Source: a virus | Lineage: Duplodnaviria; Heunggongvirae; Uroviricota; Caudoviricetes | Virus record (IMG/VR): IMGVR_UViG_3300031902_000927 | Length of the DNA: 64,000 nt | Direction: 5' to 3' (one strand) | Part shown: positions 7,548 through 59,518 of the stretch, one piece after another | How positions within the stretch are numbered: position 1 is the stretch's first letter | Layout of the letters: every line of letters begins with the position of its first letter | The notes under the pieces: model-generated | What the model was told of the DNA's origin: nothing | Seen by the model: the letters and a program-made list of their open reading frames with translations, nothing else | Database searches by the model: none | Position numbers and translations under genes: made by a program

Positions 7548-8045
7548 ATGACGAGAAAAATAATAGCAAAATTTTGGTGTGAGATGTGTCAAAAGACACA
7601 GATAAAGGAATTAGCAATTGATATTGAAGAAAATAATTTTCCTTATGAAATGGGTTGGTTTGAGCTAAATTCATTTAATATGGTAGCTCCAAAGCGTTCT
7701 GGTACACCTGTTGAGATTGAATTTTCAAATAAGGATTTTTGCAGCAGAGATTGCGCTATTAATTATATTGAACAAGCACTACTACAATCTGAAACAAAAG
7801 TTCAAGAACCAAAAGCAGTTCCAACTGAACCTATTCCAACAATTCCACAAAGAGCAGAGATTTTAAGGCCAGAGCAACCACAAAAACCAGAACAAAAGCT
7901 TGGCGCGATGGGACACCCTTTATCTGAATCTTATGATAATTATACAGGTAAACCATACGACACAGAAGAGCTTGATTCTGTTCCAGAGTTAGGACCAAAA
8001 AAAACAGAAGAACCTAAGAAGAGATTTGGATTTTTTAAGAGATGA
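7548..8045 (+). CDS. hypothetical protein with N-terminal zinc ribbon
   Basis: CEMCQ...CSRDC; GAGGAGG SD; Pro-rich middle. Confidence 0.4.
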   Translation: MTRKIIAKFWCEMCQKTQIKELAIDIEENNFPYEMGWFELNSFNMVAPKRSGTPVEIEFSNKDFCSRDCAINYIEQALLQSETKVQEPKAVPTEPIPTIPQRAEILRPEQPQKPEQKLGAMGHPLSESYDNYTGKPYDTEELDSVPELGPKKTEEPKKRFGFFKR

Positions 8046-8497
8046 AGCCTTGGATTTACAAAGGTAAAGAATATACAAAAGCAGATGCGGAAATAGAAGC
8101 ATTTGTTTATTTAATTGTTGGTCCAGAAAAAACTTATATAGGAAAAAAGAACTTTTGGCATACGTTAAAAAGACCTCCAAAAAAAGGAAATAAGAATAAA
8201 AGACACGAAATAAAGGAAACAGAATGGCAATCTTATTGTGGTTCAAGTGAAGCATTATTAGAGGATATAAAAAAATTTGGAGAAGATAAATTTCATAGAG
8301 AAATATTGATTTTATGCAGCAAGAAATGTATTGCTTCTTATTTTGAATTATATTTTCAAATGCAAGAGAATGTTTTATTTGACACTTTTTCTTATAATAA
8401 TATTATTAATATACGACTTAACGGAAACATATTTCTTAATCATAAAGATGAATGTCGTAGAATTCTTAAAGAGCTTGAAGCTAAGAACAAATTTTAG
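8042..8497 (+). CDS. possible GIY-YIG-like nuclease domain protein
   Basis: FVYLIVGPEKTYIGKK resembles GIY-(9-11)-YIG, with downstream R/E; weak. Confidence 0.3.
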   Translation: MKPWIYKGKEYTKADAEIEAFVYLIVGPEKTYIGKKNFWHTLKRPPKKGNKNKRHEIKETEWQSYCGSSEALLEDIKKFGEDKFHREILILCSKKCIASYFELYFQMQENVLFDTFSYNNIINIRLNGNIFLNHKDECRRILKELEAKNKF

Positions 8498-22884: not shown

Positions 22885-23232
22885 ATGATGAAAGATATAA
22901 CAATTAAAAATGAAGGTAATTATGCAAAAGTATATCGTAAAGATATGTATATTGGAATTGTTAAAACATATCGATATAATATGAATGATGTAAATATTGA
23001 AGATATAACAGTTAAAAAACAAGGAATTTATATAAGAGTTTATTGGAAAGGACAACGTATGTGGACTGAAAACACCAAGAATATTTTAAAAAGTAATGGC
23101 GCAACTAGATTTAAAATGTTTGCCTCAATATATCATTTGATGTTAAAACAACCTTTTATTCCAAATGGAATGGAAGAATTACACAAAAAAGAAATTAATC
23201 ATAATAAACATTATCCTTATGGAGACGATTGA
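22885..23232 (+). CDS. hypothetical protein with internal duplicated 25-aa motif
   Basis: DITIKNEGNYAKVYRKDMY / DITVKKQGIYIRVYWKGQR. Confidence 0.4.
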   Translation: MMKDITIKNEGNYAKVYRKDMYIGIVKTYRYNMNDVNIEDITVKKQGIYIRVYWKGQRMWTENTKNILKSNGATRFKMFASIYHLMLKQPFIPNGMEELHKKEINHNKHYPYGDD

Positions 23233-30386: not shown

Positions 30387-30394
30387 TACTCACA

Positions 30395-30975
30395 ACGAGT
30401 GCCTACACGATAGTTTTTGGGTTTTGTTCTGATTTTAACGATGACGAACATACTCACATCTTTTTCCCAATAACAAATGAGTGTAGTAAAATCATATGCG
30501 AGATTGAAGAGTCTCTAAAAAGCATATCCGTAAAAGGGAGTACAGACGTAAATCGTAAGGTGGTCTGTATTTGATATTTTCAAATTCCTGAAACATCCAC
30601 AGTCTTATTGGTGTGTTATGACTTTGAGGGTTTAAGAGTCTGTTTCGATAAAATATTTTATTGATGCGAGTAAAGAGATAATTCCTCTTTGTAAAAATTA
30701 TACGCCCTACGCTGACTGTAGAACAAACAAGATTTATCCAAGAGGTAAAACTCGGCGAAAGCTTCAAATGGCTTGTTTGTGGATGCAGGATAGACCAGGT
30801 GGTAAGGCACACAAATAAGTCCTTATTGCCTTAAAAATTATCTCGGAAATGCGATAGGGACAAAAGTGTTAGCAGACGGTTAGAACACGATGAAGCTTGG
30901 ATGCTTTGCTTGATTTAATAATCGTTATAAGACGCATTGACACACAAATCCTCGCAAGTTTTCCGAGATTAATTA
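30395..30975. ncRNA. GC-enriched island without + strand ORF: candidate structured RNA or cis element
   Basis: About 580 nt with clearly higher GC than flanks; only a low-complexity minus ORF (30492..30812). Confidence 0.25.
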
Positions 30976-30977
30976 CA

Positions 30978-31073
30978 ATGATAAAAGTTAAATGCGAAAG
31001 ATGCGATAAACCAAAAGACAATCCTTATGAATATTTTGAAGGAATGTGTAAAGAATGTTATTATGGAGAATAA
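30978..31073 (+). CDS. tiny zinc-ribbon protein (31 aa)
   Basis: MIKVKCERCDKPKDNPYEYFEGMCKECYYGE. Confidence 0.3.
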   Translation: MIKVKCERCDKPKDNPYEYFEGMCKECYYGE

Positions 31074-32744: not shown

Positions 32745-33336
32745 ATTAGTTGATGAGCAACACGTTGATATAATGTGTGGAGAAAATAAGATAGGACATA
32801 TTTTTAGTCCGAGTGGTTCTGGAGAAAATGTTTTAAATGCTATTCAAGTGTGTGGCTTCGATGAAGCATTTTCTTTATGGGGATGTGGATGTTTTGCAGA
32901 GAAGAAAAAGAAAGATTCTAAAGCAGGTGAATATTCTTGTTCTTCTATTATGAAGAAGGATATTCAGTTGAGATTTTCCGATTATGTTAATGATAAAGAT
33001 TCTAATAATCATTATTACCGTAATTGTACAAGATGTTATAATAGTCCTTGTACTTGTGAAGTTCTAGGACAAAATGGCATACCTTTTATTGTTAAGCACG
33101 AATATGAGATTAAGGATAAATTGGAGTATAAGAATGGAGAAATTGCTGCTCAAAATGAAGTAGAACAATTTTCTATGGGAAATATAAATAATTCACAAAA
33201 GATAGATGGTAGTAATCTTTGTCCAAAATGCAAATCTAAAAATATTAGATATTTTCAACAACCAGATGAATGGATGAAAAATCAACCTTATAATTCAATA
33301 TGTGAAAATTGTAAACATAGATTTAATCGAGTATAA
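32728..33336 (+). CDS. cysteine-rich protein with C-terminal zinc ribbons
   Basis: CPKCKSKN...CENCKHRF. Confidence 0.4.
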   Translation: MKITFKLVDEQHVDIMCGENKIGHIFSPSGSGENVLNAIQVCGFDEAFSLWGCGCFAEKKKKDSKAGEYSCSSIMKKDIQLRFSDYVNDKDSNNHYYRNCTRCYNSPCTCEVLGQNGIPFIVKHEYEIKDKLEYKNGEIAAQNEVEQFSMGNINNSQKIDGSNLCPKCKSKNIRYFQQPDEWMKNQPYNSICENCKHRFNRV

Positions 33337-33337
33337 A

Positions 33338-33565
33338 ATGAAAGAATCAAAATTTCATTTGATATTATTTTTTGTATTTTTTGTATTTTTAGTTTTTTCT
33401 ACATATTGTTTTGTAAGAAATAGTCAATTAAAATTATACGAATATATGTTTTTATTTTTTTTTATTTTCGTGGCAAATTATTTTAATTGGACAAGATTTA
33501 TTGATATTAAAAAGAAAGAAGAATTTAAAGAATGGAAAAAGAGTGTACTTGGAGAGGATTTGTAG
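33338..33565 (+). CDS. small membrane protein
   Basis: 2 TM; internal ATG after upstream stop. Confidence 0.35.
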   Translation: MKESKFHLILFFVFFVFLVFSTYCFVRNSQLKLYEYMFLFFFIFVANYFNWTRFIDIKKKEEFKEWKKSVLGEDL

Positions 33566-33829: not shown

Positions 33830-34141
33830 AATGGATATACAATTAAGATATTATGGAGTGTGTCTTGGAGTTTGTTCTGGAGCTTCTATAATGTTAGGAT
33901 TTATTGCTTTATCACCTAAAGGTGTAAGTTTATCACATCCAATTTTATTTGGTATATTTTTATTATTTTAGCAATAGTTACATTTATTGGAGCACTATAT
34001 ACTGTAAAAAGGTCAGATAAATGAACAATAGAACTCACAAATGTATAAGATGCAGAAAAACGTATCTTATCACACCAGAAGCTACACAATTTCATTTGAC
34101 GTGCGAAATAGTTAAATGGAACGCAAATTGGAAGAAATAAA

Positions 34142-34357
34142 ATGCAAGTAGATAAAATTCAACTCCATAAAAAACTTCCTAATGGAAAAAAACAAGTATA
34201 TTTTAGATGGATATGCTCTTGTGGAAGTTCAAATAAAGAAGATACATTTAGATGTAAAAAATGTTCAACTGATAGATTTACATTTGTAGAAGAATTAGCA
34301 TTGGGTAAGAGAATTACAAAAAAATTATTACAATTAAAAAGGAAACACATATCATAG
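34142..34357 (+). CDS. zinc-ribbon protein
   Basis: CSCGS...CKKCS. Confidence 0.4.
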   Translation: MQVDKIQLHKKLPNGKKQVYFRWICSCGSSNKEDTFRCKKCSTDRFTFVEELALGKRITKKLLQLKRKHIS

Positions 34358-34390
34358 TCCAAAAATAATTCTTGCAATGGACAAACCTCT

Positions 34391-34427
34391 TGGGTAGGGA
34401 TTGGCGAATCTCTACCCAGTTATTTTT
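34391..34427 (+). terminator. rho-independent terminator-like hairpin + T-run
   Basis: TGGGTAG...CTACCCA stem followed by TTATTTTT. Confidence 0.5.
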
Positions 34428-34435
34428 AAAGCAAG

Positions 34436-34711
34436 ATGGAGATTAAAATGGGAAATTATAATTACAAGAAAGATATAATAGTTAGTCCAAAAGATAAAGT
34501 TAAAATAAAAATTGGAGAATATATTTCAGTAGTATTTGAAAAAGATAAGAATGAATATTTTGGTCCAGAGACATTAAAAGAAGGAGATTGTTTTTGGACA
34601 ATAAGAATGGATAAAGATACTTATTTTGATACTTTAAGACAAGAAGATGCAATTATCATAAGTAATCAAATTAAAATAATGTCGATGCTTACTGATATGG
34701 TTAGGGAATAA
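34436..34711 (+). CDS. hypothetical protein
   Basis: 91 aa. Confidence 0.4.
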   Translation: MEIKMGNYNYKKDIIVSPKDKVKIKIGEYISVVFEKDKNEYFGPETLKEGDCFWTIRMDKDTYFDTLRQEDAIIISNQIKIMSMLTDMVRE

Positions 34712-34712
34712 A

Positions 34713-34994
34713 ATGGGAAGAAAAGAATGTAGGTGCAGAACGTGCAGTCATATTAATCATTTGAGATTTGATAAAAGGCTTAGAGAACAAGGCAAGAAAA
34801 CAGATGTTTATGATATAATTAATATTGATTTTGAAGAGAAAATTGGCATAATTCATTGGCGTGGAGGTTGGAGGCAGTATGTTTCAAGAACCAATCCAGA
34901 AGTTGATATGTCAAGAAGCTGCAACAAAGAAGTAAATGATTTTATTGATAAATTGATGGAAGAGAGAAGGAGAAAAGATGAAGAAAATAATTAA
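34713..34994 (+). CDS. hypothetical protein with CRCRTCSH motif
   Basis: 93 aa. Confidence 0.4.
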   Translation: MGRKECRCRTCSHINHLRFDKRLREQGKKTDVYDIINIDFEEKIGIIHWRGGWRQYVSRTNPEVDMSRSCNKEVNDFIDKLMEERRRKDEENN

Positions 34995-35238
34995 TTCGAA
35001 AACTATTGAATCATTATATATTATATCTTTGGAAAATTTATTAGTTATCACATTTCTTATTGTATCGATTGTTTATCATATAATATATGGAATTATATTT
35101 TTATCTATTTTCTTTGTATTATTTAATCTTTTAGCATATGTATCTGTTATCAGAGATTTAGATAAATATAATTTTCAAGAATGGAAAGCAAGAAATATTT
35201 ATTTGATTGATTGGAAGAATGTCAAGGAGAAGAAATGA
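34978..35238 (+). CDS. membrane protein
   Basis: 2 TM. Confidence 0.4.
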   Translation: MKKIINSKTIESLYIISLENLLVITFLIVSIVYHIIYGIIFLSIFFVLFNLLAYVSVIRDLDKYNFQEWKARNIYLIDWKNVKEKK

Positions 35239-35855
35239 AACTAACAATAGGAGATTTATCCGAAGCCTTAGCAAGATTGAAGAAAAAGAATGGATATATG
35301 TATAATCCTTCTGAAAATGAAATACGAGAAGAAGCTATCTTATACGTAGGAGAACAGAATGGTTGGTTGATTGGATTTTTTGAAGGGCAAGTAAGTTTCA
35401 GCGTGAATATTTCCTTGACAAGTACAAAGAATAAAAGATATGTATTTTTCAAGCCAAATATAATTATATCTAATTCTGATGAGCATCAATTGAAATTTAT
35501 TGTAGATGTTTTACAATTAAAAACAAATATTACTAAAAAGAAGAAGAGAGATTCTTCTCACAATGATTGTCATACACTTAATATACAAGACCTTTCAGAT
35601 ATTTGTAATGTAATTGATAAGCTCTCAAATTGTGATTTTGTTTCACAAATAAAAAAAGAAAAGTTCCAGAGATTTGTTGATTGCTGCGCTTATATAACTA
35701 GGAACAACCTTGCTTCTAATACGGAATGGAAGGAGTCTTTTGTTGAAGCTCTTGATAAAAAGTTAAAGATTAATGATTCGCGTTCTAACATTGCTTCTCA
35801 AAGATATAGTAAAGAGGTCTGGGTAAACAAGATAAAGGACCATTTAGATTCTTGA
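35235..35855 (+). CDS. degenerate LAGLIDADG-like homing endonuclease/maturase-like protein
   Basis: GWLIGFFEGQVSFSVNISLTS...RYVFFKPNIIISNSDEHQLKFIVDVL parallels I-CreI LAGFVDGDGSIIAQIKPNQSYKFKHQLSLTF, but the catalytic Asp position is Gln. Confidence 0.35.
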   Translation: MKLTIGDLSEALARLKKKNGYMYNPSENEIREEAILYVGEQNGWLIGFFEGQVSFSVNISLTSTKNKRYVFFKPNIIISNSDEHQLKFIVDVLQLKTNITKKKKRDSSHNDCHTLNIQDLSDICNVIDKLSNCDFVSQIKKEKFQRFVDCCAYITRNNLASNTEWKESFVEALDKKLKINDSRSNIASQRYSKEVWVNKIKDHLDS

Positions 35856-35859
35856 GGCA

Positions 35860-36420
35860 TTGAATTATTCTGAAATGTATTGTTCTAAATTTATTTTATA
35901 ATTGCTACGTAGGTCTATCTCCATACGTAATTAGGAGCTTGTTAGGATAAAATTACTTATTTTCCACTAATATTGACGATAGAATTGACCGTTTTCTAAG
36001 AAGTATGCAAGGCATACAATGTATGCAATGTATGTGGCCAGATTCACAGATATATGTGAAAGAAACTCAATTCAATTATGGATTCTTACAGATTTTGTAA
36101 GAATAATACGCAATTGGACTACATATCCTATACAATTCGCGTAGTTGTTCCCATATTTAACGCCGTAGGCTTCAGCAGATGGGTCTGCTACACGACTTCT
36201 TAGCAGCTTTGGTAGGATTCTTGGTACAGATGGTACTGTTGCTTCCGAAGAGGCTTCCGCTTCAGAAATAGATGGGAACAACCTGCTGCGCTGCTTCAGA
36301 AACGGTCTGAAGCTACATCAAACTTCAGTAAACTTCAGTAAACTGCCGTAAACTAAACGTTTAGAATTTATATAAAGTCATCCGAAACCTTTATAAATGA
36401 CTATATTATTTCCAAATTGT
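35860..36420. ncRNA. GC-enriched island without + strand ORF with long-range pairing: candidate structured RNA
   Basis: GTTGTTCCCAT (about 36146) pairs with ATGGGAACAAC (about 36275); hairpin GCTTCAGA-aacgg-TCTGAAGC; GTAAACT x4 and CAATGTATG repeats. Confidence 0.3.
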
Positions 36421-36712
36421 GAGAAATCACAGAGGCCAAACAATGACAACAAAAACTAAAAAATGTGTTGGATATAATCAATTACAATCGATTATTTCCG
36501 AGATAATGGATATGCAAACATACCCTAACTGGGATTTTATCAACAATGTATTATCTTGCAAAAATATATTTGGAGAAAATACTTTGTGGTTCTGGATTGG
36601 CGAACTATATATAGTTAGACCAGGCCAGAAAACGGCAGGAGAAATGGAAATTCTTGATGATTGGAATACTGAATTAGATGGTACATTTACTTTTATTGGA
36701 AAGAATAGTTGA
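36419..36712 (+). CDS. hypothetical protein
   Basis: 97 aa; alternative ATG at 36443. Confidence 0.35.
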   Translation: MRNHRGQTMTTKTKKCVGYNQLQSIISEIMDMQTYPNWDFINNVLSCKNIFGENTLWFWIGELYIVRPGQKTAGEMEILDDWNTELDGTFTFIGKNS

Positions 36713-36807
36713 AGAAATGAAATAGCAAAAATGTTTAATGTTAGTAGAAGATTAATTTGTGGTATAAGAAACAACAAAATGTGGACACATATAAAATTGG
36801 AGGAATT

Positions 36808-37230
36808 ATAATGAAAAAATTACAAACAACAAATGATATTGAATTAGAATTTAATAAAGATAAAAATGTTGAGCAAGTTATGATAATACCTTTTCAAGAT
36901 TTATTATTATCAATGAAACTTGTTGAAAAAGATAAAGATAGAAAAACAAAAACTCCTTATGTTAAAATAGAAATAGTTGTCCCAAATGAAATTGGAACAA
37001 CCATTAATGAAGTAATGAACTCTAAATGGAAATTAGCCCTTCTTGGTGTTCAGTATAAACCAGAAAAAGCTAAAAAGATGCAATATAAAACCGAAGAAGA
37101 AAGACTTGACGAAGGATTATGCCCAGAATGTGAAACAGATTTAGTTAAAGCATCACATAATGGTGGCAGTCACGATGATAAACATTCAGTATGTCCAAAT
37201 AAGAAGTGTGGATGGGAGGATTCAGAATGA
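36808..37230 (+). CDS. hypothetical protein with C-terminal zinc ribbon
   Basis: GGAGGAATTATAATG SD; CPECETD...CPNKKCGWED. Confidence 0.45.
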   Translation: MMKKLQTTNDIELEFNKDKNVEQVMIIPFQDLLLSMKLVEKDKDRKTKTPYVKIEIVVPNEIGTTINEVMNSKWKLALLGVQYKPEKAKKMQYKTEEERLDEGLCPECETDLVKASHNGGSHDDKHSVCPNKKCGWEDSE

Positions 37231-37532
37231 TACTTGATGAAGGATACGGATTTATTTCAAGCCAGTACACAGAGGACGGAAAATTCAAAGTAATTCAAAT
37301 CAAAAAAGACTTTCTAAAAAGATTTGAAGGTATCTTTGAAGCAGAAGAAGATGGAAATGTCTATGGTAAAGAAGAAAGACAAGCTGAACTTGATGAAGTA
37401 TTTGATTTTGCAATAAGTTTTCTTGCAGATGTACTTGACCCTGCGAATCATAAAATAGAAATATTAACAAAAGAAGAATTTACCGAAAGACATATGCCAA
37501 AACCAAAACCAAAAGAAGGCGAGAATATGTGA
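37228..37532 (+). CDS. hypothetical acidic protein
   Basis: ATGA overlap. Confidence 0.4.
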
Positions 37533-37646
37533 AATAGATGGAAAGTATCGTGGAGAAGATTGGAACTCTGCTCGTATGGAAAAGAGAAGAGCATTAATCA
37601 TTCAGTACAACCAAGAACGGAAAAATAAAATTGTAGAGGTTAAAAA

Positions 37647-37832
37647 GTGAGAATAATTGTTAATGTAATTCAAGGCGCGTTAATCGTAATAGCGAGAAAT
37701 AAACGTATAGCTCTTGAAGAAATGAAGAAAAATTTTCCAGAATTTGTTTTAACAAATACATTAACTTATGCGTCAAATTCAAGTGGAGAATTAGGAGAAT
37801 ATATGTTTATTAAAAGAGAAATAAAAAAATGA
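37647..37832 (+). CDS. small hypothetical protein (non-ATG start likely)
   Basis: 61 aa. Confidence 0.3.
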   Translation: MRIIVNVIQGALIVIARNKRIALEEMKKNFPEFVLTNTLTYASNSSGELGEYMFIKREIKK

Positions 37833-38761
37833 CGGAAGACGGCGTAAAGGAATATGTAGAATTTGGAAAGCGAGTTCAAACCTTTGCCAAAAATGTTTTA
37901 ACAGGTAAAGCTGAAACATTACACGGCACATCGACTGAACACTTTTCACAAAGAATTCAAAGAATATACTCGAAGAGTCATTTATATAAAATTGACGAGA
38001 ATACTAAGAAATTATTGATGCTCACAAATGCTCCTAAAGAAAATGGACAAATAAAATTACCTTTTCCAGAAATGTTTATTGGATGTCATTTTACTAAAGA
38101 AGAAATTGAAAAATATACTGGAATCAAAATAGAATATGACGATATATTCGGTTTATTATTACAAGAAGGTGGAGAAAGTGCCGTCTTCGATAAAATTACA
38201 GGCAAATCAACCTTGATGGAATTAAATAATTCAATTAAAATTATTGCTTGTTGTGAAGAAAAATTAAGCGACGGAAGATTCGACGTAGTATTCAATACTA
38301 TGCACGTTAATGTAGTCTTTGATGAAGATTTGGATTATGATGCAATAGCTAACATTAGCAGTAAGGATGCAGAGAAAACCAAAAAGTTTTCAAAGATATT
38401 TATGATGAATGTTTTAAATTTAATTCATAATCCAGAAGTAGAATTTGTCACAAGTAATCGAGATGATAATCAAAATAAAAAGAGAATTAATAGAGGACAA
38501 TTACCATTACCAGGTCAATCAGTAATTAGATTAACAGGCAAGTTAAAAATATATGTTGATAGTCTTTCCGATGGTGAATCATTTACCTATAATCATAAAT
38601 TTTATGTACGAGGATTTTGGAGACAACTTAAATCTGATAGATACGTTAATGCTCTTAAAGAAAATAAATATGGTAGAGGTTTTGGTGTTGTGTGGGTTCT
38701 TCCGTCAATAAAAGGACAGGGCTTACTTATCGAAAAAGACTACGAGGTTAATGTACAATGA
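37829..38761 (+). CDS. hypothetical protein (310 aa)
   Basis: ATGA overlap both sides. Confidence 0.45.
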   Translation: MTEDGVKEYVEFGKRVQTFAKNVLTGKAETLHGTSTEHFSQRIQRIYSKSHLYKIDENTKKLLMLTNAPKENGQIKLPFPEMFIGCHFTKEEIEKYTGIKIEYDDIFGLLLQEGGESAVFDKITGKSTLMELNNSIKIIACCEEKLSDGRFDVVFNTMHVNVVFDEDLDYDAIANISSKDAEKTKKFSKIFMMNVLNLIHNPEVEFVTSNRDDNQNKKRINRGQLPLPGQSVIRLTGKLKIYVDSLSDGESFTYNHKFYVRGFWRQLKSDRYVNALKENKYGRGFGVVWVLPSIKGQGLLIEKDYEVNVQ

Positions 38762-58567: not shown

Positions 58568-58778
58568 AATAAACTATCATTCTATTCAACATTGTATCGA
58601 CCAAAGATTTGAAGATTTATCAAGTTATACCAATACTTCTTTAAATGAAATATTCGAATATTATGACAAACAATTAAATTTTTCTGAAACCATATTATTA
58701 GACTATTATAGACATAAATCTAAAATTATGGTAAATGCTTATGTAAATACAATTAAAAAATACTACAAACCGATTTAA
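58560..58778 (+). CDS. hypothetical protein (last + strand gene)
   Basis: 72 aa. Confidence 0.35.
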   Translation: MNKINYHSIQHCIDQRFEDLSSYTNTSLNEIFEYYDKQLNFSETILLDYYRHKSKIMVNAYVNTIKKYYKPI

Positions 58779-59122
58779 TTCTTTTTTTGAAGTATTTGAA
58801 TAGACTTTGCTAAAGATAATCTAGTGTTATCTATCTTGTTCCCACATTCTTCAAGCTTCCTAGCTGCTTCTCCTGTTGCAGTCTTAATATCTGATGTCTC
58901 TTCATATTCCTTAACCAAAGCCCAAATTTTATCACTTATCGCATCCATTTCTTGCTCAATTTTCTTGATTTCTTCTTCTAAAACCATTCTTTTCACTCTC
59001 CGCTTCTGTTCAAATATATAGTTAAAAAACTCTTTCATAGTGAGATGTTCCCATATTTTACCTGGCAATTGGGTGTGAGGAGGACGAATAGTGGGTTCAT
59101 CCCTTAGATGGATTTTACCCAA
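58775..59122 (-). CDS. hypothetical coiled-coil protein
   Basis: First gene of convergent minus-strand block. Confidence 0.4.
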   Translation of the reverse strand: MGKIHLRDEPTIRPPHTQLPGKIWEHLTMKEFFNYIFEQKRRVKRMVLEEEIKKIEQEMDAISDKIWALVKEYEETSDIKTATGEAARKLEECGNKIDNTRLSLAKSIQILQKKN

Positions 59123-59134
59123 TTACCATCTGGT

Positions 59135-59518
59135 TTATGGGAACACCGTGAACGACAAAGTACCTTTCTCTACCTGACCTGACAAGTATCTAACTTCATA
59201 ATCGACATAGTATGTACCTCTTTCTACCGATTCTGGTACATTAAAATGAACTTTTTCCTCAATATATTCTCCTTTATAGGTTGTAAACATCTTATAAGTC
59301 TGTCCATTTGAAAATTTTACCCATTCAAGTGTTGAAGGAGTAAGTACATTTCTTTTCAAATTAATATAACCTGCATCATTTCTTTCTGGAGTTAATACAA
59401 TCTTTTTATCAAAATTTCCACTCTTAAAAATTAAATTAGTTTGTGTTATAACTAAAAATACTGACAATAATACTCCAAAAATCATCATAACAACTATAAA
59501 CCAAGGTATCTGCTTCAT
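59135..59518 (-). CDS. N-terminally anchored membrane protein
   Basis: TM WFIVVMMIFGVLLSVFLVI. Confidence 0.45.
   Translation of the reverse strand: MKQIPWFIVVMMIFGVLLSVFLVITQTNLIFKSGNFDKKIVLTPERNDAGYINLKRNVLTPSTLEWVKFSNGQTYKMFTTYKGEYIEEKVHFNVPESVERGTYYVDYEVRYLSGQVEKGTLSFTVFP

Follow-up and report, generated by a model that had tools for sequence, protein, structure and literature searches.

Within a 64,000-nucleotide (nt) stretch of phage-like DNA (the window; IMG/VR record IMGVR_UViG_3300031902_000927), we analysed the open reading frame (ORF) 35235-35855, coding for a LAGLIDADG-like protein, together with the intergenic spacer of 587 nt that follows it (35856-36442). The ORF lies behind a gene for a small membrane protein of 86 amino acids (aa) and the spacer separates it from a gene of 89 aa. 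The genome has a GC content of 28.5% and small, densely packed genes, which lie on the + strand up to 58.5 kb; among its products are a family-B DNA polymerase, an ATP-dependent ligase and a ParB-like protein. The same sequence recurs at ≥99.8% identity in many metagenome contigs, the longest of 105.6 kb. An earlier note on this DNA had proposed that positions 35235-36420 form an intron-like or ribozyme-like mobile RNA element with its maturase or, alternatively, an iteron-bearing origin.

The LAGLIDADG-like protein and its catalytic position

The Pfam model LAGLIDADG_1 (PF00961) matched the ORF product with E=2.5e-4 and 22.3 bits along model positions 1-98 of 102, which is 0.8 bit under the gathering cut-off of 23.1 bits; precomputed matches to the same model are present on homologues of the ORF, and a profile of these homologues found solved LAGLIDADG enzymes in the PDB at E=1.4e-9. 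The AlphaFold (AF2) model, with a predicted local distance difference test score of 79, consists of helices at residues 27-50, 83-93 and 120-131 and strands at residues 54-63, 70-81, 99-101 and 113-117, and Foldseek assigned it a probability of 1.0 to I-Vdi141I, I-TnaI, I-OnuI and I-CvuI, the best matches being the homodimeric I-Vdi141I and I-TnaI. The likeness to single-motif LAGLIDADG proteins, asserted in the earlier note, was therefore recovered by profile and by structure, even if the Pfam score itself stays below its cut-off.

The note had also read the motif FFEGQVS as carrying Gln in the place of the catalytic Asp, and this reading holds: the motif covers residues 48-54, and in the PDB profile alignment G-F-F-E-G-Q-V-S-F is aligned to G-F-T-A-G-E-G-S-F and G-F-A-D-G-E-S-S-F of I-LtrI, so that Q52 stands opposite the catalytic Glu of both I-LtrI domains. 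The acidic residue at this position coordinates the catalytic metals and is essential, and it is missing in relatives that are not nucleases, such as WhiA and some maturases (PMC3384342). Q52 is invariant in the four closest homologues. Four homologues of 166-170 aa, with 48-54% identity, can be aligned from residue 40 of the ORF onward; they lack the 38-aa helical extension found at the N-terminus of the protein in this phage only. The C-terminus carries a conserved W-x-x-K-I-x-x-H-L tail.

A profile was searched against 1.84 billion representatives and returned 77 proteins at E≤0.001. The roughly 45 with E<1e-9 make up a family of 155-180-aa proteins. The catalytic position is acidic (D or E) in 5 of 43 aligned family representatives and non-acidic in the remaining 38, namely Q (9), N (8), K (8), R (5), S (4) or H (4), while the more distant matches (e.g. 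P0052-P0063) carry the canonical G-[DE]-G. The family, of about 45 clusters, was found only in phage-like metagenome contigs, and searching its alignment against IMG/VR, JGI metagenomes and GTDB genomes returned just one contig, which was already known. One match outside the window, P0010, is a predicted protein of 6128 aa in which 24 separate stretches match the family profile at its positions 33-103 (E=2.4e-49); a giant repeat protein is one possible explanation, an artefact of assembly or gene calling another.

Taken together, sequence and model support the assignment of the ORF product as a single-motif LAGLIDADG-fold protein with Gln at the catalytic acidic position. A loss of nuclease activity is suggested because Gln stands where Asp or Glu holds the catalytic metal ions, and the most likely activity of the protein is nucleic-acid binding without cleavage. 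The homodimeric single-motif endonucleases I-CreI, I-Vdi141I, I-TnaI and I-CvuI are its best matches in structure and sequence. Compared with the I-CreI-type enzymes, it has Gln in place of their Asp or Glu at motif position 8, as its relatives mostly have a non-acidic residue there; it is encoded by a free-standing phage gene and not within an intron or intein; and it adds the C-terminal tail and the N-terminal extension. Retention of the fold with loss of the metal-binding acids is also the condition of WhiA/DUF199 and of mitochondrial group I maturases such as bI3 (PMC3384342). WhiA, however, belongs to Gram-positive bacteria and is a monomer of two domains to which a helix-turn-helix domain is fused, whereas the ORF product is single-domain and has no helix-turn-helix, and the maturases are encoded inside the intron that they fold, whereas the ORF has no intron.

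One metagenome contig (L001) is identical to the window save for the loss of 7 nt at 35647-35653, which shifts the reading frame of the ORF. Part of the phage population, at least, can thus do without the gene, which may be dispensable or decaying. In this it resembles the free-standing seg and mob genes of T4-like phages, which are likewise stand-alone cassettes between genes; these, in contrast, are active nucleases of the GIY-YIG or HNH type, whereas the ORF is of the LAGLIDADG type and its active site looks disabled.

Gene context and the intron question

The ORF starts 5 nt after an AAGGAG ribosome-binding site, with its ATG sharing bases with the TGA that ends the upstream membrane-protein gene (34978-35238), an arrangement that recurs as the same start/stop overlap in the homologue loci L002, L004 and L006. 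On the other side, the 89-aa gene has its own GAGG ribosome-binding site and three homologues (P0006-P0008) with 56-65% identity over 88-91% of its length, which share its N-terminus and stand in unrelated gene neighbourhoods. With a stop of its own upstream, and its own GAGG and a shared N-terminus downstream, the flanking ORFs are complete genes, and no split host gene surrounds 35235-36420. Homologues of the ORF are free-standing genes in every context seen; in L021 the gaps to the flanking genes are of 15 nt and 1 nt, and the homologue in L002 is likewise tightly packed. In L004 (331-2246), 183 nt separate the LAGLIDADG-like homologue from a downstream TnpB/IS605 OrfB gene, behind which comes a DNA methylase, and the family appears to be located at hot spots for mobile genes.

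The covariance models of Rfam 15 (4227 models) were run at gathering score on the whole 64 kb, where no family reached the threshold, and at E≤10 with relaxed filters on 35000-37000 and on 36080-36370 (291 nt), where nothing relevant was found; neither the group I intron model (RF00028), which represents the conserved catalytic core P3-P8 with the G-binding P7, nor Intron_gpII matched in either search. These results bear directly on the proposal that 35235-36420 is a mobile group I or II intron, or another ribozyme, with the LAGLIDADG-like protein as its maturase. Maturases are indeed known among the LAGLIDADG proteins without the catalytic acid (PMC3384342), and the spacer is foldable and GC-rich, but there is no Rfam match of any kind, the upstream gene closes in the ATGA overlap, the downstream gene is whole, having a ribosome-binding site and an N-terminus of its own, and the family members stand free wherever they are seen. 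An intron-encoded maturase was accordingly rejected: no intron RNA was matched, the gene appears to be coupled translationally to an unrelated upstream gene, and its homologues are free-standing. Judging from the sequence, the region is not an intron or a ribozyme; the proposal is largely refuted, and we leave it next to no probability.

Composition and folding of the spacer

The spacer was described in the earlier note as GC-enriched and devoid of + strand ORFs, and both points were confirmed. GC reaches 0.47 at 36101-36400, the highest peak in the whole window (mean 0.285), and all six frames are interrupted by stops, leaving two ORFs of 41 aa on the + strand and one unsupported ORF of 69 aa on the - strand. 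A Pfam search of the stop-free stretches gave no match and the minus-strand ORF called here by JGI has no homologue, so a protein-coding function of the spacer is ruled out by the stops in all frames together with these two results. The spacer is one of the two largest intergenic gaps of the window, the other being 30387-31026. Its parts are listed in Table 1.

Table 1. Features of the ORF, the spacer and the related helix, in window coordinates.
Position	Strand	Feature	Remark
35224..35238	+	AAGGAG ribosome-binding site (35224-35229) and ATGA start/stop overlap	Read from the sequence
35235..35855	+	LAGLIDADG-fold protein gene	Free-standing, 206 aa, single domain; Q52 at the metal-binding position
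35647..35653	+	7-nt stretch lost in one otherwise identical metagenome contig (L001)	Frameshift giving a 151-aa product
35856..36104	.	AT-rich left part of the spacer	Candidate protein-binding sites; putative function
36003-36034		9-nt array GTATGCAAT x3.6, with dyad symmetry	Within the AT-rich left part
36043-36060		Near-palindrome TTCACAGATATATGTGAA	Within the AT-rich left part
36082-36104		23-bp perfect palindrome ATTCTTACA-gattt-TGTAAGAAT	Within the AT-rich left part
36094..36111	+	TTTGTAAGAATAATACGC at the boundary from AT-rich to GC-rich	Resembles an extended -10 promoter; a lead only
36105..36320	.	GC-rich foldable core, 46% GC, G and C balanced	Multibranch domain closed by an 11-bp helix
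36320..36354	+	10-nt tandem repeat AAACTTCAGT x3.5	A-tracts helix-phased, 10-45 nt upstream of the promoter-like box
36365..36377	+	AATTTATATAAAG, candidate promoter of the downstream operon, TTTATATAA class	3 exact copies of the 13-mer
36372..36442	+	Putative 5' leader of the downstream operon	Imperfect hairpin 36372-36381 / 36397-36406; GAGG 36432-36435
36443..36712	+	89-aa gene, complete, not an exon	Homologues P0006-P0008
59046..59145	-	Twin of the closing helix, TGTTCCCAT 59046-59054 / ATGGGAACA 59137-59145	Three-helix hairpin

The long-range complement that the note had seen is exact, with GTTGTTCCCAT at 36144-36154 facing ATGGGAACAAC at 36272-36282 and 117 nt between the arms. Perfect inverted repeats of 11 nt within 150 nt number 10 in the window and 12.3 in its shuffles, and since about 12 are expected per window this repeat by itself proves nothing. 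The perfect 8-bp hairpin with the aacgg loop is equally exact (GCTTCAGA-aacgg-TCTGAAGC, 36293-36313). Its 5' arm GCTTCAGAAA at 36293 has a second copy at 36259-36268, and both copies are able to pair with the single TCTGAAGC at 36306, so that two mutually exclusive hairpins are possible at 36259-36313; the 3' arm of the long-range helix would lie inside one of the two. The direct repeats needed correction: GTAAACT, given as fourfold, occurs three times, within the 10-nt array, and CAATGTATG, given as threefold, occurs twice, within the 9-nt array. The hexamer CTTCAG is clustered, 6 of its 18 copies in the window falling inside the 170 nt of 36170-36340, and the core contains five CTTCAG and one CTGAAG.

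Compared with shuffles, the 587-nt spacer folds moderately better (z = -2.8 on the + strand and -2.3 on the - strand). In a scan of 1277 segments ranked by GC-adjusted minimum free energy, 36001-36400 is among the approximately five most stable on both strands. The core reaches -45.9 kcal/mol on the + strand and -42.5 kcal/mol on the - strand, and on either strand the 11-bp helix closes the multibranch domain.

This closing helix recurs elsewhere in the genome. Five exact copies of the 9-mer are found in the window, four of which make up the TGTTCCCAT/ATGGGAACA pairs at 36 kb and 59 kb, and the 5' arms at the two loci have 16 of 17 bases in common (TGTTCCCATATTTnAC). An inverted-repeat arm with at least three G/C that recurs at two loci appeared in 0 of 200 dinucleotide shuffles; the recurrence of the closing stem at 59046/59137 is not due to chance. 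At 59 kb the helix belongs to a hairpin that fills the 96-nt gap between the minus-strand genes 59135-59518 and 58775-59038 and folds at -45.6 kcal/mol, with z=-5.55 on the minus strand compared with z=-2.0 on the + strand, one G.U pair being possible on the minus strand only. The stability on the minus strand and the strand-specific G.U pair indicate a role at the RNA level for this copy, and extending that role to the copy at 36 kb would be, by analogy, the most economical reading. The apical part of the 59-kb hairpin contains a CCUCCU stretch.

At the right end of the spacer, the 13-mer AATTTATATAAAG has exactly three copies in the window, each just upstream of a + strand gene; TTTATATAA stands ahead of the gene starts at 23027, 26867, 28752 and 51673, and in L015-L017 and L019 TTTATATA lies about 50-60 nt ahead of the 89-aa gene's homologues. 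A scan for sigma-70 promoters and terminators gave no excess over shuffles, and k-mer enrichment across the intergenic DNA gave no sharp motif. Boxes of the TTTATATAA type are also found about 7.7-8.8 kb upstream of window position 1, where contig L024 (446-1483) has a non-coding divergent region of 1 kb with six of them, a GC-rich hairpin and several direct repeats (e.g. TCTCAAAAT and GAGATT); from its appearance, this region may be an origin of the phage or its main early control region.

Interpretation of the locus

Our preferred explanation, to which we give slightly better than even chances, is that the locus combines a disabled free-standing gene of the LAGLIDADG family with an independent inter-operon spacer, in which a structured core, probably acting at the RNA level, precedes the promoter of the next operon. 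The ORF would stand on its own as the final gene translated from the upstream operon, would descend from a LAGLIDADG homing endonuclease of the homodimer type and would have no intron to mature. In the spacer, the segment 36320-36442 would carry the A-tract repeats in helical phase, a promoter of the TTTATATAA type and the leader that belongs to the next operon. The core at about 36105-36320 would most likely be transcribed and act as a structured RNA, either as the 3'-end or a processing or stability structure of the upstream transcript or as a small non-coding RNA, and its closing helix would be a repeated motif, found again at the base of the mRNA hairpin between cistrons at 59 kb, suggesting that a common factor may recognise it at both loci. 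The nuclease loss, the promoter function and the RNA-level role of the core are all proposals made from the sequence.

Several observations weigh against this explanation. The two strands of the core fold about equally well, which is compatible with an element acting as DNA. The putative transcript is not delimited by an intrinsic terminator or a clear sigma-70 promoter. All nine metagenome copies of the spacer (9/9) are 100% identical, and consequently no base pair is supported by covariation; diverged relatives were sought through the flanking genes, through DNA patterns and in the sequence collections, and none was found. The two copies of the closing helix have unrelated interiors and are direct repeats on the DNA, although they lie in oppositely transcribed regions. 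Concerning the protein, Gln at position 52 makes nuclease activity unlikely, short of proof, and 5 of the 43 family members are acidic there. Among the searches for relatives, DNA patterns gave 0 matches, either for the long stem among viral contigs or for the hairpin among GTDB genomes; blastn of 34000-38000 against phage records gave 0 matches; the ORF, the 89-aa gene and a 310-aa gene led to no relative in IMG/VR; and for the window as a whole there was none in the phage records, IMG/VR or GTDB genomes searched. The loci fetched for the homologues of the ORF and of the 89-aa gene showed neither similarity to the spacer nor synteny with it, and spacer-like DNA was absent from the homologue loci of four other contigs.

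The equal folding of both strands would fit with the spacer being a DNA-level element, either a replication origin or an operator, at which proteins, possibly the nuclease-dead LAGLIDADG dimer itself, would bind the repeats, the palindromes, the CTTCAG cluster and the TGTTCCCAT/ATGGGAACA pairs. This would also account for the repeat arrays on both sides of the core, for the strong clustering of CTTCAG and for the presence, within only 587 nt, of 2 of the window's 26 perfect short palindromes, and the 23-bp palindrome presumably has the size and symmetry of a site for a homodimeric LAGLIDADG protein. An iteron-type origin, on the other hand, has several direct repeats of about 17-22 bp beside an AT-rich unwinding region and usually an initiator gene. 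The spacer has just the 9-nt array (x3.6) and the 10-nt array (x3.5), fewer and shorter than typical iterons; its core is GC-rich, contrary to what a DNA-unwinding region would show; no initiator gene can be recognised next to it; and the cumulative GC skew has no inflection at the spacer but only a flat step, which is uninformative since all genes here lie on one strand. The 59-kb twin, moreover, is markedly more stable as minus-strand RNA. The case for the iteron-bearing origin of the earlier note is weak, and we consider a DNA-level function in general unlikely.

A functionless remnant, in which the core would be decayed foreign or mobile DNA (e.g. a homing-endonuclease or transposon cassette) and self-complementary by accident, is quite improbable in our judgement. 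It would fit with the position of the core next to a gene of the selfish-element type, with the L004 homologue of this gene standing beside a TnpB/IS605 gene, with the variant of the ORF that is already frameshifted and with a core composition foreign to the genome. But no protein remnant is detectable in any frame, the spacer has no similarity to L004 or to the other fetched loci, and the sequences tried went unmatched in GTDB genomes, phage records and viral contigs. It is also rare for a phage genome to retain 0.5 kb of junk, and the closing helix is common to a second, clearly structured element. A TnpB/IS605 remnant, considered because of L004, was rejected on the lack of sequence similarity to the spacer.

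Going beyond the preferred explanation, the core, the hairpin at 59.05-59.15 kb and possibly the island at 30.4-31.0 kb might represent an undescribed class of phage structured RNAs, defined by the closing helix that they have in common (UGUUCCCAU/AUGGGAACA) and recognised through it by a factor of the phage. The adjacent nuclease-dead LAGLIDADG protein could be this RNA- or DNA-binding partner, maturase-like without an intron; we regard this reading as a long shot.

Among known systems, a close picture for the 59-kb twin is that of the processing or stability hairpins that lie between cistrons of phage mRNAs, such as the RNase III sites of the T7 early RNA, which are long, imperfect and share their stem sequence. 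The twin, as a predicted structure, fits this picture well. The difference from the T7 sites is that only two copies are seen here and that the one at 36 kb closes a multibranch domain of 117 nt in a 587-nt spacer. Because it is a long non-coding GC-rich island whose closing helix is reused in the genome, the spacer is a reasonable candidate for a new phage regulatory RNA, on the strength of composition, foldability and the repeated stem. Only one other such island occurs in the genome, which is tightly packed and measures at least 105 kb. If a nuclease-dead, free-standing protein of the homodimer type is indeed kept in a family of uncultivated phages, it would add a viral case to the few LAGLIDADG domestications, WhiA and the maturases, and the ORF product would also be a compact natural scaffold for binding DNA or RNA. 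The practical outcome is negative, in that the locus appears to be neither an intron nor a ribozyme.

The other large non-coding GC-enriched island of the window, 30387-31026, covers 640 nt, with a GC peak of 0.43 and a fold z=-2.85, and has no Rfam match at E≤10. The only sequence it shares with the spacer is TTTGTAAnAATnATACGC (30688-30705), which lies at the same kind of AT-to-GC boundary and repeats 16 of the 18 bases of TTTGTAAGAATAATACGC; the match is not significant (score 26 compared with 22 ± 2.5 in shuffles), and a common origin of the two islands was rejected on this basis.

Elsewhere in the window, no tRNA or transfer-messenger RNA was found by scanning. The gene at 8042-8497 has a SegE-type GIY-YIG homing-endonuclease domain according to the precomputed Pfam annotation of L022, and by this annotation the phage has at least one further free-standing gene of the homing-endonuclease type. 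The ORFs 33302-33565 (87 aa) and 34978-35238 (86 aa), the latter being the gene that overlaps the start of the LAGLIDADG-like ORF, both encode small membrane proteins with a similar terminal E-F-[KQ]-E-W-K motif and, from their sequences, look like paralogues.

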